From positions 8,814 through 72,813 of the IMG/VR virus record IMGVR_UViG_3300042470_001171: a stretch of DNA of 64,000 nt, one strand, 5' to 3'. Position 1 is the first letter of the stretch. Each line of letters starts with the position of its first letter. Source of the stretch: a virus (lineage: Duplodnaviria; Caudoviricetes). The notes below the pieces were generated by a model. It did no database searches, was not told the DNA's origin, and worked only from the letters and a program-made list of their open reading frames with translations. The position numbers and the translations under genes are program-made. Of the stretch, positions 5,509-63,514 are shown piece after piece.

Positions 5509-5596
5509 GTGCCACTAATTTACCTGGGGTATATTGACAAGCCCGATATAGTGGGGGTATATTAGAGACATGGAACGAACCACTTACACCGAGGAC
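5509..5596 (+). promoter_or_regulatory. Sigma70-type promoter cassette (copy 1)
   Basis: GTGCCACTAAT...GGGGTATA-TTGACA(5534)-18bp-TATATT(5558), then ACCACTTACACCGAGGA. Confidence 0.8.
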
Positions 5597-7615: not shown

Positions 7616-8503
7616 ATGGATACTATTACCGTCACCTCCCAGCCCTCCCAGACTGCTAGCCTTGCCCTGCAGCAGGCCAGTAGCGACGACCACCTGATCG
7701 AGATGTGGATCAGTCGTTCCCGAAGTGCTGGCACCCAGAAAGCCTACCGTCGAGCGATCACCCGGCTACGGGCTTGGCTAGCCCACCACGACTGCCACCA
7801 GCTAGCCATGGTCACAGCGGCCATGCTGATCGACTATGAGGCCACGTTCCCGAAGCGCTGGAGCGATGCTACCTGCAACCTGCACAAGGCCGCCATCAAG
7901 TCGCTGTGGAAGTTTGGCAGCTCCATTCGTTACCTGCACTTTAATGTCCCCCATGCTGTCTACCGGCTAGGCAAGCCCAGGCCAGTCATGGCGGAGCGGA
8001 TCCTAACCGAAGGCGAAATGAGGCGGGCCATTGCCAAGGAACCTAGCCTGGAGGCCCAGCTATTCCTGCGCTTCCTATTTGCTACTGGCGTTCGGGCCAG
8101 CGAGGCGCTAGCGGTGCGGTGGTGTGACCTGCACCTACGCGGCCAGCGGGTGTTCCTGGCTATCCACCACGGCAAGGGCGACAAGGCCCGCGAGATCGGA
8201 TGCTCCAAGGCTGTCTACGACGCGCTGATCCAGGCCCGGCCAGAGGATGCGCTGGACCAGGACGAAATATTCCCGGTGCCCTACCTGATCGCTTGGCAAT
8301 GGGTGAAGGTGGCCATGGCCAGGATCGGCAAGCCCCAGGCTAGCCCCCACTGGCTGCGCCATGCCCATGCTGTCACCGCAGCCGCCCATGGCTCCGACTG
8401 GTGGAGCATTGCACAGCAATTAGGCCACGCCCGGCCGTCGTTCACAATGGACCGCTACGCCCATTTTAATGGGGTGTTTAGCTCGGACTATGTGGATATT
8501 TAA
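7616..8503 (+). CDS. Tyrosine recombinase/integrase
   Basis: TGVRASE (R), GKGDK (K), HWLRH, LGHA, RY. Confidence 0.93.
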   Translation: MDTITVTSQPSQTASLALQQASSDDHLIEMWISRSRSAGTQKAYRRAITRLRAWLAHHDCHQLAMVTAAMLIDYEATFPKRWSDATCNLHKAAIKSLWKFGSSIRYLHFNVPHAVYRLGKPRPVMAERILTEGEMRRAIAKEPSLEAQLFLRFLFATGVRASEALAVRWCDLHLRGQRVFLAIHHGKGDKAREIGCSKAVYDALIQARPEDALDQDEIFPVPYLIAWQWVKVAMARIGKPQASPHWLRHAHAVTAAAHGSDWWSIAQQLGHARPSFTMDRYAHFNGVFSSDYVDI

Positions 8504-16697: not shown

Positions 16698-16788
16698 AAC
16701 CTTCTCCGTAAGTGGTTCAACAATTTCAATATACCCCCGCCATATCGGCATGTCAATACACCCCCAGTAAATTACTGGCACAACCTCT

Positions 16789-16871
16789 GGCACACTCCCA
16801 CCACAGTGGGATCCGCCTGCAGCAGTCCAGCGACACACCTCCACGACACACCCCCACCGCAGCGGGGAACC
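16789..16871 (-). CRISPR. Two-repeat mini-array downstream of the FtsK-like gene
   Basis: CCCCGC-tgcg-GTGGGG-GTGTGTC, spacer, TCCCAC-tgtg-GTGGGA-GTGTGCC; period 56. Confidence 0.65.
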
Positions 16872-19740: not shown

Positions 19741-19808
19741 GCTCACCCCCACAATGGTGGGGCAATTAAAGCGCTTCAGCAGGATCCACCCCCACTGGCG
19801 TGGGGCTT
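19741..19808 (-). CRISPR. Two-repeat mini-array inside the FtsK operon
   Basis: CCCCAC-gcca-GTGGGG-GTGGATC and CCCCAC-catt-GTGGGG-GTGAGC; period 43. Confidence 0.65.
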
Positions 19809-21980: not shown

Positions 21981-23150
21981 ATGGAGAAACAAATTTCAGA
22001 TCTCGTCCGCATGGGCGAGACCATTCAGGCTCGAATCAAGCGGTTTGGGCCCCAGACAGCCCTAAGCATTACGAGGGCAGTCCTCGCGCTCAACGAGAAC
22101 GAGGTTAACCAGGTGCAGGCCGAGCTAGAGCGTCTAGCGGAGCAGCTAGGCATTGTCGAGGGGATCAACGGATGGGTGTTGGACATCGGCGCTCTCATCC
22201 TTCGCATGAAGGACGACATCCATGCGGCCATTATCCGCACTGGACCCCAGACTACCCTTAACATCACTGTGGCCATTTTGGGTCTGGCCAAGTCCGATGC
22301 TAAGCAGGTGCAAGCCAATCTGGAGCGCCTGGCGGATCAGCTTGGCATCGCCCAAGGAGAAAAAGGCTGGGTGCTCGATACCAGCATTCTCGCACCCGAA
22401 CAGAAACGCAGATACACGTTGGAAAGCCATCGGATCCAGGTAGCACAGAAGGTTGCCTATGAAATGGGTCTGGAGGGCAAGCCTGAAGTAGCTTGGCGGG
22501 CCTTGTCTCGGCGGGTAACTGAACTAACCGGAGAGAAGATCCACGAGGCTTGGTTTGCGCCGTCTGGGCGAGGGGCTCACTTCCGGGAACACATCGAGGC
22601 ATCCTTTGCCGATGGCGTGGCTGAGCGGGAGAAACAGATCGACGCCGTGGCTAGCGAGCTAGGTGGCATCGTCGAGGAAGTTGTTGGTGCCACCAATGGC
22701 AATGGCAATGGCCACCACCTGGACGACGGGCCTACCGAGGAAGACTTGACACTCATTCAGGAGATCGCCAAGCTTGAGGCTGACGCTGAAGAATACCAAG
22801 ATCGCATCAAGGCGCTAGAGGCCCAGCTAGCGGCCATAGCCTGGGCCAAAGGCGAAGCTGAAGAATACCAAAACAAGATCGCCGAGCTAGAGGCCCAGCT
22901 AGCGGCCTCAGCACCGACCCAGGTACAAACACTCCAGCCAGATACCGGAGGCACCCTAGAGGGGATTCTAGCGGCCCTAGAAACCCAACTAGAAGCCGCT
23001 AGCCTAAAGGCAGAAGCAGCGACTAAGGCGGTCGAAGCTGCCCAGGAGCAGGCGGAACTGGCTGAACTCGGCGTGGACCAGGCCCGCCAGCGGCTCCAGG
23101 CTGCACTAGAGGCAGTAAATACCCTCCAGTCGCTCAAGGAGGGTGAATGA
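21981..23150 (+). CDS. Protein with a tandem duplicated about 63-aa N-terminal unit and coiled-coil C-terminus
   Basis: GPQT.L.IT.A.L.L..QVQA.LERLA.QLGI..G..GWVLD twice. Confidence 0.75.
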   Translation: MEKQISDLVRMGETIQARIKRFGPQTALSITRAVLALNENEVNQVQAELERLAEQLGIVEGINGWVLDIGALILRMKDDIHAAIIRTGPQTTLNITVAILGLAKSDAKQVQANLERLADQLGIAQGEKGWVLDTSILAPEQKRRYTLESHRIQVAQKVAYEMGLEGKPEVAWRALSRRVTELTGEKIHEAWFAPSGRGAHFREHIEASFADGVAEREKQIDAVASELGGIVEEVVGATNGNGNGHHLDDGPTEEDLTLIQEIAKLEADAEEYQDRIKALEAQLAAIAWAKGEAEEYQNKIAELEAQLAASAPTQVQTLQPDTGGTLEGILAALETQLEAASLKAEAATKAVEAAQEQAELAELGVDQARQRLQAALEAVNTLQSLKEGE

Positions 23151-23632: not shown

Positions 23633-24553
23633 ATGGGCGCAACCTTACACCCCGTATTCCAGCGGGAATCCATGATCTGGCAAAGCATTCTGACCGCCAA
23701 CGAAAAGCTATTGCTGCTTTGCCTCAACTCGTTCCTAGGCGCTGATGGCCGATGCTTCCCCAGCATTGCCACCATGAGCCGGATGACTGGCCTCAGTCGC
23801 AGCACGACTAACCGCACCCTGGCCCTACTCGAAGACCAAGCCATCATCAACAGCCAGCAACGCTACCGCGATGACGGCAGCCAGACCGCCAGTGATCGGT
23901 TCCTGGATTTTGATGCCATTCCAATGGCCAAACCGGATCCAGATCCAGCCGAAAATCAAGGCGGGGGGGTATGTCAAAATGACATGGGGGTGTGTCAGGA
24001 TGACATGGGGGTGTGTCACAGTGAAACGGGGGGGGTGTCAGACTGGGAGGGGGGGGGTGTCAGCTTGACACACCAAGAACTATCCAGAAGAACTATCCAG
24101 AAGAACTATCTAGATCTTTTCCCCCCTACCCCCCGTTCAGAAAAAAAAGGGAAAAAAGAAACCAGCAAGCTGGATCCGGAAAGAACTGTTGCGCCGCCCG
24201 CCGCCGCGCCGGTGGCCGCAGTGGATCCATCCAAGCCTGATCCATTCGCGGCCCAGTTTGCGCCCAGGCCGTGGCGGGAGAATGGGTGGGGCAAGATCTT
24301 GCCAAAGTTCTGCGAGTTCATGGTTGCTGGCAAGCACATTGTTGTTGACGGGCAGATGAACCCTAAGACGAAGGCGATGTACCATGTGTCAAACTTGGAG
24401 CGAGATGGCAAATGGGATAAACTGGAATATCTCTGGGCTGAGTACCAAGCCAGCCTGCAGCCAGCCAGGCCAAAGGCTAAGCTGGCCACGGAAAGCTATG
24501 ACGAGCGGGTGCGTCGGGAGATGAACCAACACCAACAGAGGGAACACGCATGA
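23633..24553 (+). CDS. Phage replication initiator (N-terminal HTH)
   Basis: LTANEKLLLLCL..CFPSIATMSRMTGLSRSTTNRTLALLE; internal iterons; directly upstream of DnaB. Confidence 0.82.
   Translation: MGATLHPVFQRESMIWQSILTANEKLLLLCLNSFLGADGRCFPSIATMSRMTGLSRSTTNRTLALLEDQAIINSQQRYRDDGSQTASDRFLDFDAIPMAKPDPDPAENQGGGVCQNDMGVCQDDMGVCHSETGGVSDWEGGGVSLTHQELSRRTIQKNYLDLFPPTPRSEKKGKKETSKLDPERTVAPPAAAPVAAVDPSKPDPFAAQFAPRPWRENGWGKILPKFCEFMVAGKHIVVDGQMNPKTKAMYHVSNLERDGKWDKLEYLWAEYQASLQPARPKAKLATESYDERVRREMNQHQQREHA
23963..24160 (+). repeat. Putative replication origin: five 21-22 bp iterons, three 13-bp repeats, A-rich tract
   Basis: GGGGG(T/G)(A/G)TGTCA with TGTCA at 23972, 23993, 24014, 24036, 24058; AAGAACTATC(C/T)AG x3 at 24075-24113. 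Confidence 0.75.
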
Positions 24554-28634: not shown

Positions 28635-28832
28635 ATGCAACTAAGCTCCCAGGCAAAGGCCACATTCCGCAAAGGCATTGCCCGCACCAAAGCCGCCCAG
28701 GCTGCGGCCAAGGAGCTAGCCGCCCTGGTGCTAGCCCAGCCAGACGCCCCGCCAGCCATGCAGGCCCTGGCCCGGCAGGTGCTTGATCCGGTGGTGGTGG
28801 TAATGGAGGAAGAGCAGCAGGACGCGGCGTAG
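28635..28832 (+). CDS. Hypothetical protein
   Basis: 65-aa ORF ending the operon. Confidence 0.5.
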   Translation: MQLSSQAKATFRKGIARTKAAQAAAKELAALVLAQPDAPPAMQALARQVLDPVVVVMEEEQQDAA

Positions 28833-28836
28833 GCCA

Positions 28837-29078
28837 GGCCCCACGGGTGTGGGGGTGAGTCTTGCGACTCTTGAGGCCCACTGCGGTGGGGGTGTCTCGA
28901 CTTGGGGAAAGGTGCCCCACCAAGTGGGGGTGAGTCGAGATGGCGGGGAGGCCCACTGCGGTGGGGGTGAGTCGGTTTAGCTCCTGTGCCCCACTAGGTG
29001 GGGGTGACTCCTACAGGGTTATGGTGTCCCACGGGGTGGGGGTGGCTCAGTAGCCTTTGAGGCCCCACGGGGTGGGGG
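28837..29078 (+). CRISPR. Seven-repeat ultra-short-spacer array (about 12-nt spacers, about 37-nt period)
   Basis: GGGGG anchors 28851, 28888, 28926, 28963, 29000, 29038, 29074; handle GTG(A/T/G)(G/C)TC. Confidence 0.8.
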
Positions 29079-29182
29079 AAGAAACCCAGCCATGGGCTAA
29101 TGATTGGGTTGTGCTAAAATAGAAGTGCCCTAGGGCGGCTCAACACCCCAGGGCAATGTCCCCTACCACAACTAGGAGAGCT

Positions 29183-31841: not shown

Positions 31842-32035
31842 GCGGCTAGCCTGTTGACACATTCTGCAGCCGGTGTTAGCATGTTGGTTCCTGGCCTGGG
31901 GTGGTGCCTGGGCTTTGGTAGTAATTTCGCTTTTTTGGAGAAGGACGGTCGTTAGGCCGTCTTTTTTATGCCTTACCCCCCACCCCAGCCCGCTGGCCAC
32001 CTGGCGGGCTTTGTCGTGGCTGGCCAGGGCTGGCC

Positions 32036-32584
32036 CTAGCGGTACGGGTCCACCGGGCCTATGGCCTTCCCCCCAGCCACCACAGCCCGGGCATCCACAT
32101 CAGCGCCATAGCTAGCCATGGCATCCGCCGCCACTTCAGCCATAGCCAGGTCTAGCCTAGCTAGGTAAAGCTGGGGCCTAGCTGGCCAGATGCAGCATAG
32201 CCCGGGCTCTGCCGCCAGGGCATCTCCACTGGCCACCAGGGTAAGGTACTGGGCGGTGTCGGGGTCGATGGGATCATGGGGGAGGGTAGACAGCAGCCAG
32301 TCTGCCACCAGGCGGGCCTTGATCTCCTGGCCATGGCATAGCCAGCCGTAGAACACCTCCCGCAGATCTCGCACCCAGGCAGGGCACCACCACAACACCT
32401 CCCCGGCCTCCAGCATGGCCGCCAGGGCATCAGTAGGGTATCCGGTAGCCTCCAGTGCCTCAACGTGGGCGCTGACAGCTTCTAGGGCTTCCTGGTCCAG
32501 GTCGGTGGCAAACCATAGCTCCCAGTCGGCTGAGGCTGTTGCTGAGGCGGCCTGGGCTTCCAGGTAAGCGGTGGTGGGGCTCAT
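32036..32584 (-). CDS. Hypothetical protein
   Basis: 182-aa ORF, ATGA-coupled. Confidence 0.65.
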   Translation of the reverse strand: MSPTTAYLEAQAASATASADWELWFATDLDQEALEAVSAHVEALEATGYPTDALAAMLEAGEVLWWCPAWVRDLREVFYGWLCHGQEIKARLVADWLLSTLPHDPIDPDTAQYLTLVASGDALAAEPGLCCIWPARPQLYLARLDLAMAEVAADAMASYGADVDARAVVAGGKAIGPVDPYR

Positions 32585-32940: not shown

Positions 32941-33323
32941 AATGTTTGTGCCTCACTTGTTAGCTGAATTAACGGTGGGGTAGCCGTTCCATCGTTTGTT
33001 GACGCAAGCGGTGGAACGCATCTACTATTTTACCCCATTTTTGATTAAAAGTCTTGGCCAGGGCAGGCCCCAAAGCAAAACCCCCAGCTAGGCCGGGGGT
33101 CTGCGGGGGAGTGTGGTTAGCACCAGGCTTCAAGCCCTTGGCTTCGACTTCCGTAGGCTAGCGACTGACGGGGAGGACAGCATCTCCGCCTAACCCCACT
33201 CCCCCCCCCACCACTCCCCCACCCCAGCCCGCTGGCCACCTGGCGGGCTTTGTCGTGGCTGGCCAGGGCTGGCCCCAAAGCAAAACCCCCAGCTAGGCCG
33301 GGGGTCTGCGGGGGAGGTGGTGG

Positions 33324-52396: not shown

Positions 52397-53473
52397 ATGG
52401 GTAGGCAGCTAGGCTGGGTATGGTTTGGGGCGAGAGGGGCTAGGATCTATTGTGTTCCGTATTTTAATACCGCAGGAAATCAGTTTGGGATTGTAAACAC
52501 AGGGTCAAACACATTGACGCTAACGACATTAGGCGCTAACCCTGGAATAGATTACTATTGGTTTAGATCTGTATCTGTAGGCAGGAAAGTTTATGCCTTG
52601 CCAACAACGCGCTTTTTTGGCACTAGTGATTATGAGTTTGGAATTATAGATACAGACACAGATACATTAACAATAACTGCGTTAGGCCTTAATCCGGGGA
52701 TAGATTACTTTTGGATAGGCGTTTCAGCTGTAGGCACTAGGATTTATTGTATACCAAGCTCTGCTAGTGCAGGTAATCTATTTGGAATAATAGACACAGA
52801 GACGGACACATTAACGTTATCAGCATTAGGGCTGGACGATCAGACAAGCTATAGATGGGGTGTTTCGGCGGCAGTAGCTACAAGGATTTATTGTATTCCA
52901 GATTTTAACGTAGGGGCGAACCAGTTTGGAATTATAAACACGGAAACAAACACAATAGAGTTGACAACATTAGGAGTTTCACTTAATGAGAATCATTGGT
53001 GGGAAACAATTCAGGCTGTAGGCACCAAGATCTACTGCATTCCTTATATTAATGCAAAGGGAAATTTATTTGGCATTATAGACACAGAAGCCAATATATT
53101 AACTTTAACGACACTAGGATTAAGCTCTGCCGTAGGGTACGCATGGATTGCTTCTGCAGTTGTAGGTACAAAAATTTATTGTATTCCACAGCGCAACCTC
53201 GGAGGAAATCAGTTCGGCATCATAGACACAGAAACAAACACATTGACACTAACGACATTAGGTGCAGATCCTGCAATAAGTTATGGGTGGAGCGCATCTG
53301 CGGTCGTAGACAAGAAAATCTACTGTATCCCGACTCTGAACATTTTTAATGGAGGAAATCAGTTTGGGATTATAGACACAGAGACAAACACATTGACGCT
53401 GACAACACTAGGCGAAAATTCTCAAGACGACTATCGCTGGTGGTCAGCTGTTGCAGTTCAGACCCAATCCTAA
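52397..53473 (+). CDS. Seven-repeat beta-propeller-like protein, low GC
   Basis: Seven about 48-aa units IYCIP..GNQFGIIDTETNTLTLTTLG..Y.W. Confidence 0.8.
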   Translation: MGRQLGWVWFGARGARIYCVPYFNTAGNQFGIVNTGSNTLTLTTLGANPGIDYYWFRSVSVGRKVYALPTTRFFGTSDYEFGIIDTDTDTLTITALGLNPGIDYFWIGVSAVGTRIYCIPSSASAGNLFGIIDTETDTLTLSALGLDDQTSYRWGVSAAVATRIYCIPDFNVGANQFGIINTETNTIELTTLGVSLNENHWWETIQAVGTKIYCIPYINAKGNLFGIIDTEANILTLTTLGLSSAVGYAWIASAVVGTKIYCIPQRNLGGNQFGIIDTETNTLTLTTLGADPAISYGWSASAVVDKKIYCIPTLNIFNGGNQFGIIDTETNTLTLTTLGENSQDDYRWWSAVAVQTQS

Positions 53474-63414: not shown

Positions 63415-63514
63415 GCCCACTACGGTGGGAGTGAGTCGGCCAGAGGGTGCAGGCCCCACATAAGTGGGGGTGCTTCGATAAGCATGGTATAGCCCCACAA
63501 TAGTGGGGGTTACC
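63415..63514 (+). CRISPR. Three-repeat short-spacer array
   Basis: GTGGG anchors 63425, 63464, 63503; period 39; handles GTGAGTC/GTGCTTC/GTTACC. Confidence 0.7.

Follow-up and report, generated by a model that had tools for sequence, protein, structure and literature searches.

A phage array of CRISPR-type hairpins with short conserved guide-like segments behind a replication operon

Introduction

What is the role of a regular series of hairpins that a phage carries directly behind its replication genes, with intervals far shorter than those of an ordinary CRISPR array? The locus lies in a stretch of 64,000 nucleotides (hereafter the window) that makes up most of a 72,813-bp virus record and carries an integrase, a Mu F-like head protein and tail genes. 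An earlier note, made from the sequence alone, had described a seven-repeat array with spacers of about 12 nt and had offered two readings, a battery of RNA anti-CRISPRs (Racrs) against a host type I-E system, or seed-only guides for gene repression. Our analysis of this lake phage suggests that the array puts parts of a stripped-down, phage-encoded CRISPR system to an unusual use, probably giving six tiny guide-like RNAs of conserved sequence.

Results

Seven hairpins form six units behind a stop codon

The array spans positions 28837-29078 on the plus strand, and we confirmed that it is real. It contains seven hairpins of the type CCCCAC-N3-4-GTGGGG, in which the arms CCCAC/GTGGG mostly extend to six pairs and enclose loops of 3-4 nt. 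Their cores, counted with 5-bp arms, lie at 28840-28853, 28877-28890, 28916-28928, 28952-28965, 28990-29002, 29028-29040 and 29064-29076. Measured from the GTGGG arm, the periods are 37, 38, 37, 37, 38 and 36 nt, just as claimed before, and all six inter-repeat strings quoted in the earlier note are found as written. The description as a seven-repeat array holds for the hairpins, but the repeat-plus-spacer units number six, not seven. Six of the seven hairpins are followed by a tail, GTnnnTC, and then by about 13 bases that separate this handle from the next stem, giving six handle-plus-short-guide units. Written as G-GTnnnTC, the tails of hairpins 1-6 are GTGAGTC (three times) and GTGTCTC, GTGACTC and GTGGCTC (once each), whereas the seventh, terminal hairpin lacks a tail and has GAAGAAAC in its place.

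Folded locally, every unit forms its own hairpin; folding of the whole 291-nt region was uninformative on either strand (z -1.4 and -2.3), as the repeats pair with one another. With up to one mismatch, CCCACNNNNGTGGGGG matches the window 61 times against 1.04 expected and a maximum of 6 in 100 shuffles, a count in which most sites figure on both strands because the string is palindromic. Tandem Repeats Finder scored only part of the array (28873-28974), and Rfam at gathering thresholds returned no match in the whole window.

The array lies directly 3′ of the replication operon, as the earlier note had stated. This plus-strand operon consists of tightly packed or overlapping genes, among them those for an HTH_36 initiator, DnaB, a PAPS-reductase-like protein and a C5 methylase, and is closed by a 65-aa ORF (28635-28832, plus strand) with a basic N-terminus and an acidic tail, whose stop codon (28830-28832) precedes the first hairpin core by 7 nt. 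This ORF is a genuine gene, for 17 of the 21 orthologous segments contain it (13 distinct sequences), its indels are in frame, and its differences at codon positions 1, 2 and 3 number 38, 28 and 130. It has no match in Pfam, PHROGs or the protein Atlas. On its other side, the array is followed by a Bro-N gene and marks the border between a conserved module and variable cargo, with two alternative downstream sequences among the orthologues. A promoter and terminator scan of the plus strand at the array returned nothing, including no intrinsic terminator 3′ of it; inspecting the sequence by eye, we noticed an extended -10-like element, TGCTAAAAT, at 29112-29120.

The window holds further repeats. 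Iteron-like tandem repeats of 21-22 nt and of 13 nt at 23965-24114, within the HTH_36 initiator gene, are a probable replication origin, separate from the hairpin array. A 358-aa ORF of the tail region (52397-53473) contains seven diverged copies of a 144-nt (48-residue) repeat, an exact 60-nt duplicate lies at 31977-32036 and 33216-33275, 1.2 kb apart, and two 57-nt stretches (33055-33111 and 33260-33316) are 98% alike.

The phage encodes Cas6e, Cas7e and Cas5e

In agreement with the earlier note, the array is far from the cas genes, about 15.8 kb from cas6e. All three recognizable cas genes are on the minus strand, and the product of each scores above its curated NCBIfam cut-off. Cas6e (CasE/Cse3; 204 aa; 12449-13063) matches PF08798 (1.6e-31) and TIGR01907 (52.2 bits, cut-off 45.2); PDB chains of E. 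coli CasE match it at 2e-6, with the C-terminal GIGxxKxxGCGLLSL motif aligned. We presume that it is the processing enzyme for all hairpins. Cas7e (CasC/Cse4; 417 aa; 11056-12309) matches PF09344 (1.3e-67) and TIGR01869 (184.2 bits, cut-off 178.05), and a short Cas5e (CasD; 155 aa; 10617-11084) matches TIGR01868 (107.9 bits, cut-off 68.95) over profile positions 3-159 of 230.

Two minus-strand ORFs adjoin these genes. A 214-aa ORF that overlaps the start of cas6e (13063-13707) has a weak match to the SfsA nuclease domain (E 0.0038) and no match in NCBIfam or PHROGs. A 183-aa ORF 3′ of cas5e (9925-10476) has a weakly Rho_N-like C-terminus and only sub-0.9 matches in the protein Atlas; it could be an unrecognised Cascade subunit. 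We identified neither a large nor a small Cascade subunit in the phage. The cas3 core, casA (Cse1) and cas1_ECOLI models each matched none of three records, namely this one and those of two related phages (hereafter G001 and G002), one of the three having direct terminal repeats; the casA negative is weak, since that model matched only 1 of 14 control genomes.

The same hairpin builds leader-driven arrays and stand-alone clusters

The hairpin with its tail occurs about 49 times in the 72.8-kb record. Under a strict or a relaxed tail rule, we counted 41 or 49 oriented units here, and 39 or 44 and 46 or 56 in the two related records. Many of them belong to leader-driven CRISPR arrays. Array 1 (8545-9216, minus strand) comprises eleven hairpins with the repeat CGCAAACACCTCCCCAC-N4-GTGGGGGTTTCTC and spacers of about 30-40 nt. 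Array 2 (15096-15673, plus strand) comprises thirteen, with three long spacers followed by mostly short ones; the gaps of its short part measure 22-35 nt, apart from one of 49, and its leader is similar to that of array 1. In both arrays the hairpin is embedded in a longer repeat that reads CGCAAACACCT-CCCCAC-N4-GTGGGG-GTTTCTC, and the spacers measure about 29-40 nt; two further arrays lie in the 8.8 kb of the record upstream of the window. Such long units have a conserved 5′ flank and the tail GTTTCTC. Short units, by contrast, have periods of 35-45 nt, no 5′ flank and variable tail middles, and are found at the distal ends of leader-driven arrays, as in array 2, and in stand-alone clusters. 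Because cas6e, cas7e and cas5e share a genome with leader-driven arrays of the same hairpin, the cognate system of the array at 28837-29078 is phage-encoded, and the array very probably belongs to the phage's own type I-E-like system, one in which neither Cas3 nor Cse1 was found.

Several stand-alone clusters are placed just behind genes. On the minus strand, three hairpins between cas6e and cas7e (12347-12440) begin with a core 8 nt past the cas6e stop, three hairpins 3′ of cas5e (10517-10609) begin 7 nt past its stop, two hairpins (16797-16866) begin 7 nt past the stop of a 432-aa ATPase-like ORF, and two more (19748-19804) occupy an intergenic gap of a minus-strand operon. On the plus strand, three hairpins at 63416-63507 are separated by 25-nt gaps and include a word, GGCCAGAGGGTGCAGGC, that is common to G001. 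Counting the array behind the 65-aa ORF, which is the largest post-stop cluster, 4 of the 12 clusters in this record have their first core 7-8 nt past a same-strand stop codon; in G001 and G002 the first core lies 6-9 nt past a stop in 4 of 11 and 5 of 12 clusters. This placement suggests that Cas6e sets mRNA 3′ ends.

REP/BIME-like or terminator hairpins were considered and rejected: no terminator-like site was found on the plus strand at the array, and, apart from 4 single matches in bacterial genomes, the motif was seen only in a small clade of phage contigs (5 viral records).

The long spacers behave differently from the short ones. In contigs from RNA libraries (runs X20, X21, X23 and X24), the canonical repeat at 15213-15249 recurs on both sides of inserts of 29-37 nt, at least 12 of them different, which means that many alternative spacers exist in the population. 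Spacer length in these contigs is unusually variable for a type I-E array. The canonical arrays also differ among the three phage genomes, and spacer turnover where no cas1 was found raises the question of how spacers are acquired. Across the three genomes, 30 of 66 short spacers and 6 of 48 long spacers are common to another genome; long spacers turn over as in a CRISPR array, and short ones are kept. Searched against 50,697 phage records, the canonical spacers gave two matches, both with E 0.7, and against the three phage genomes and the collected loci only array-to-array matches and a few partial self matches of 14-27 nt. Two long spacers of a G002 array (22362-22560) match, over 15-27 nt, a site about 270 nt upstream of that array, which also occurs at the orthologous place in the present record (genome position 7889-7916); these spacers may be self-targeting and regulatory.

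Gap lengths between hairpins centre on about 24, 30 and 35 nt

Among 114 gaps between five-pair cores, we found one of 18 nt, 45 of 22-26 nt, 17 of 29-31 nt, three of 35 nt, one of 42 nt and 47 of 47-64 nt. Upon subtraction of the closing pair on each side and an 8-nt handle, about 13, 19 and 25 nt remain, that is 2, 3 and 4 times six plus one. The E. coli crRNA measures 37 nt from handle to hairpin, and its six-fold remainder is likewise one. In Cascade, one Cas7 is found per 6 nt (available text of PMC6859484).

A statistic for 6-nt periodicity reached 0.42 over all 114 gaps (jitter null: mean 0.08, maximum 0.31) and 0.56 over the 66 short gaps, both beyond all 5000 jittered sets, in samples that are non-independent because they include orthologous arrays of three genomes. 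For the long class the value was weak (0.23, p 0.07), and a period of 5 scores 0.37. With these three restrictions, we regard the length quantisation as supportive and not as decisive.

Stems are constrained as RNA and the short words are conserved

We oriented 156 units by their tails alone and compared their five-pair cores. The core is perfect in 122, carries one G.U pair in 27, an A.C alone in 2, an A.C plus a mismatch in 1 and other mismatches in 4. All wobbles are located in the 5′ arm, and the GTGGG arm is invariant. The asymmetry between G.U and A.C, together with loops that vary from 3 to 5 nt, is not expected of a DNA palindrome bound by a dimer. Rather, the stem changes show strand-specific selection at the level of RNA.

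A search with a 21-nt piece of the array retrieved 8 viral and 11 metagenomic stretches, which together with the window gave 21 orthologous segments containing 16 distinct arrays. In all 21 segments the terminal hairpin lacks the GTnnnTC tail, and all internal units carry [G/A]G[T/A]nnnTC. Loss of the tail on the last hairpin only is expected if each tail is the 5′ handle of the RNA that follows it.

The segments between tail and next stem, which we call words, are also retained. The orthologous arrays draw on about ten words whose order is conserved while units are gained, lost and duplicated, so that arrays range from 3 to 11 hairpins (2-10 units). The earlier note had proposed looking for orthologous arrays with different spacers; orthologous arrays exist, but their words are conserved and not different. 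No variation was seen in TACAGGGTT (14 of 14 units), TGCGACTCTT (7 of 7) or GACTTGGGGAAAGGTGC (5 of 5); the presence of GGTTTAGCTCCT reflects ascertainment, this word being part of the search string. Within word groups, hardly any change affects roughly the first ten bases; the base adjoining the tail, the 3′ portion of the word, the loops and the tail middles are all variable. In type I systems the seed lies at the handle-proximal end, so this pattern would be expected of seed-type guides. The inter-hairpin segments are essentially unstructured (mean -2.05 kcal/mol). We rejected a second hairpin between handle and word, as swapping the handles leaves the mean at -2.01 kcal/mol.

Candidate targets and expression

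Outside the arrays, the first 12 nt of the words match the phages' genomes exactly 3 times (0.7 expected) and 44 times with a single mismatch (23 expected), and the conserved 10-13-nt word cores have no exact match there. These numbers are near chance, and no convincing target emerges among the phage genomes. An 11/12 match of GGTTTAGCTCCT downstream of array 2 was set aside, as it falls in a generally conserved stretch and is within chance.

We also noticed a promoter-like family with six copies in the window, at 5534(+), 6286(+), 34326(+), 62850(-), 33562(-) and 16756(-). Its members read TTGACA-N-CGATAnnGnGGGGG-TATAnT (TATA[T/G]T), followed in 5 of 6 copies by AACCACTTAC and GAGG before an ATG; the family is present in all seven related records examined and looks like a phage-specific regulon. 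One member (16728-16756, minus strand) has a spacer, GATATGGCGGGG, that is 11/12 identical to array word 3, GAGATGGCGGGG, and might be a target, a lead that comes from sequence likeness. Relatives with a variant word have a promoter with the matching T, and so does this phage, which leaves no covariation test. Overall, the likeness between words and promoters scores >=10 in 5 of 66 cases against 1.5 expected, a weak enrichment.

Among the RNA-library contigs, the bin that contains the array is covered at a depth of about 3 in two runs of one study. Any depth is seen in 29-30 of 30 bins in two runs of one study and in 11-12 of 30 bins in two runs of another, with assembled contigs that reveal neither ends, strand nor level and may include DNA carry-over.

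Discussion

Possible seed-length guides of the phage's own system

The reading that we prefer starts from the anatomy of the array, the cognate cas genes, the strand-specific RNA constraint, the crRNA polarity and the conserved words. It holds that the array and the phage's Cas6e yield six crRNA-like RNAs that enter mini-complexes as seed-length regulatory guides, and we give this chain a probability of about one half. The array would be transcribed as the 3′ tail of the replication operon. By analogy, phage Cas6e would bind each CCCCAC/GTGGGG hairpin and cut at its 3′ base, leaving an upstream mRNA that ends in a hairpin 7 nt past its stop codon and releasing six crRNA-like RNAs. If, by analogy with Cas6e, the cut falls one base after the GTGGG arm, the predicted plus-strand products are 28855-28891, 28892-28929, 28930-28966, 28967-29003, 29004-29041 and 29042-29077, of 36-38 nt each. 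Each would begin with an 8-nt handle (GTnnnTC plus one base), continue with about 13 single-stranded bases, of which the first ten or so are the conserved word, and end in the next hairpin. Joined by Cas5e, Cas6e and approximately two Cas7e, these RNAs could form mini-complexes that bind short complementary sites without cleaving them, and would thus act as hard-wired guides in regulation.

The steps of this chain are not equally secure. That the array is processed seems likely to us, and that its RNAs act as guides falls a little short of an even chance. The tail middles GAG, GGA or TCT differ from the TTC of full-length repeats, so loading by Cas5e is an assumption. A word of 12-14 nt provides little specificity on DNA, and in the available text of PMC6859484 engineered Cascades with shortened guides fail to lock R-loops. 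Conservation alone is no proof of guide function either, as old units at the trailer end of CRISPR arrays are conserved too. The array anatomy fits the earlier suggestion of seed-only guides, which stands unproven, as no target for them was found in the phage genomes.

A bolder form of the guide reading would make the whole system one of seed-only RNA-guided regulation, in which Cas6e, Cas7e and Cas5e work with about thirty hard-wired guides of 12-14 nt and with neither Cas3 nor a large subunit. Guides would sit at operon 3′ ends and at the far ends of arrays, each transcription unit emitting its own set; they would adjust the activity of phage promoters, phage mRNAs or host genes in a manner resembling that of microRNA seeds in Argonaute, and the same Cas6e cuts would also set mRNA 3′ ends. 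We consider this wider scheme speculative and, taken as a whole, improbable.

Alternative explanations

The hairpins might instead serve as punctuation. In that case, the operon mRNA would end at a defined Cas6e site, its 3′ end capped by protein, and would be shielded from the variable genes downstream; the pieces between hairpins would be by-products. The clusters 7-8 nt past the stops of cas6e, cas5e, the 432-aa ATPase-like ORF and the 65-aa ORF fit such a role, as do the missing plus-strand intrinsic terminator after the array and its location at the border of conserved module and variable cargo, where orthologues continue into either of two sequences. Yet a single hairpin would be enough, and orthologues keep 3-11 of them; moreover, the words are conserved while the loops drift, the tail is present on every internal unit and dropped on the last, and the gap lengths come in discrete classes. 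Processing without guides is, in our view, an unlikely account of the array.

The earlier note's first reading, a Racr battery against a host type I-E system, falls under a wider decoy explanation. Here Racr-like or Cracr-like units would soak up the Cas6e and Cas7 of a host type I-E system or of a related resident prophage, to the benefit of the incoming phage, or would reprogramme these proteins. Racrs and multi-unit Cracr arrays are known from phages (PMC10651486 and 10.1101/2024.10.29.618823, as far as their available text goes). Several features of the locus could be read in this sense. The array is expressed together with early genes and lies behind the 65-aa ORF, which encodes a small acidic protein; the canonical arrays diversify in the population without a phage cas1, which points to a possible helper system in the host. 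A stem of this sequence, CCCCAC/GTGGGG, is likewise known from the I-E repeats of bacteria such as Thermus thermophilus. However, the matching Cas6e, Cas7e and Cas5e are encoded by the phage itself, and the hairpin builds the phage's own arrays, where short units are transcribed from the same leaders as real-looking full-length spacers; decoys in this position would poison the phage's own system. A decoy needs neither a handle nor conserved words; here a handle-like tail would open every internal RNA, and the words in between are conserved. Nor did a host present itself: an exact search for the repeat pattern including the tail gave 4 single matches and no array in 185,579 species genomes, and Cas7e gave one distant match in species genomes, 53% identical over 37 residues. 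We therefore disfavour the decoy battery and judge it rather improbable.

It is very unlikely that the array is a decaying relic, the now neutral remnant of an old CRISPR array in which deletions have shortened the spacers. Trailer ends of arrays do degenerate, and in array 2 the short units are distal to the long ones, but stems, tails, words and gap classes have been kept in 16 distinct orthologous arrays, stem changes are almost only to G.U, and placement past stop codons is precise. Finally, a DNA-level role of the palindromes as operator, iteron or packaging sites for a dimeric protein is scarcely credible: CCCCAC-N4-GTGGGG is a perfect DNA palindrome and the array lies 3′ of replication genes, but loops of 3-5 nt, strand-asymmetric changes (27 G.U against 2 A.C), the one-sided tail, the use of the same unit in CRISPR arrays beside cas6e and the separate iterons already present at 23965-24114 in the initiator gene all speak against it.

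Comparison with known systems

Returning to the proposed seed-length guides of a phage-encoded system, we compared the array with its closest known counterparts. It shares with a canonical type I-E array the stem-loop repeat with a handle-like tail (on six of seven hairpins), the degenerate terminal repeat and cognate cas6e, cas7e and cas5e genes in the same genome. By contrast, it has about 13 nt from handle to hairpin, where a canonical array has variable spacers of 32-33 nt plus flank, and its words are conserved and not hypervariable. It also lacks an adjacent leader, is fused to the end of a protein-coding operon at a distance from the cas genes, and belongs to a phage in which, among three records and with an insensitive casA model, the full gene set was not found, cas3, cse1 and cas1 being absent from the matches.

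The nearest viral relatives are Cracr arrays. According to the available text of 10.1101/2024.10.29.618823, these arrays imitate host CreR/CreA, take over Cas proteins of the host and carry 2-3 spacers, each about 21-24 nt long, that match promoters of host cas or toxin genes; on viral crRNA-like RNAs whose spacers are shortened, fewer Cas7 subunits assemble, and the complexes bind and do not cleave. Like these (in the same text), the present array is phage-borne and multiplexes repeat-like units that flank shortened spacers. Unlike them, it has six units (2-10 in orthologues) of about 13 nt, and is accompanied by the phage's own cas genes, although host Cas proteins might be used as well; no convincing target match was found in the phage genomes. 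As the earlier note stated, solitary phage repeat units can act as Racrs by trapping Cas6 and Cas7, which agrees with the available text of PMC10651486. A repeat-like phage hairpin away from cas genes is common to both cases, and binding and cutting by Cas6 would be expected by analogy. In that source, the active Racr product lies upstream of the cut and lacks a 5′ handle, whereas the units described here are seven tandem hairpins with conserved words, each unit starting with a tail, in a genome that carries matching cas genes 15.8 kb away.

CreA/CreR mini-arrays (10.1101/2023.03.03.530964 and 10.1101/2023.03.10.532045, available text) likewise have degenerate repeats around a regulatory spacer and regulate through partial, seed-side complementarity. 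They differ in being single units in cas loci, with a spacer of near-normal length and a known promoter target. Engineered Cascades provide a further reference. According to the available text of PMC6859484, which cites Kuznedelov 2016 and Luo 2016, they still assemble when the spacer has lost as much as 18 nt (leaving 15-nt spacers), and their binding involves neither locking nor cleavage. The same text describes R-loops on shortened I-E spacers that neither lock nor support cleavage by Cas3. The earlier statement that 12 nt is too short for I-E interference agrees with these results. Those Cascades, as described there, are laboratory constructs with a complete Cascade and Cas3; the phage case would be natural, shorter still and without Cse1 or Cas3. 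An account of CRISPR in mobile elements (PMC11656645) mentions, in its available text, mini-arrays, single repeats and Cas3-less systems, and nothing like this array.

Full-text searches of the literature gave no description of a phage that combines a Cas3-less I-E set of its own with dozens of conserved, roughly 13-nt spacers and with post-stop hairpins, a negative bounded by the supplementary candidate lists for Racrs and Cracrs (including IMG/VR Table S2), which may include this lineage. Spacers of about 32 nt are generally considered necessary for natural Cascade-type complexes. Shorter ones are known in laboratory constructs and, with lengths of 21-24 nt, in viral regulatory RNAs that rely on the Cas proteins of the host. 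With a minimal Cas6e-Cas7e-Cas5e set of its own and dozens of conserved guides of some 13 nt, a phage would carry RNA-guided regulation down to seed length. If real, this arrangement, with guides positioned to the base behind stop codons, would connect the processing of CRISPR RNA with mRNA 3′-end formation; it would also provide very compact guide architectures and a natural test of the smallest possible Cascade.
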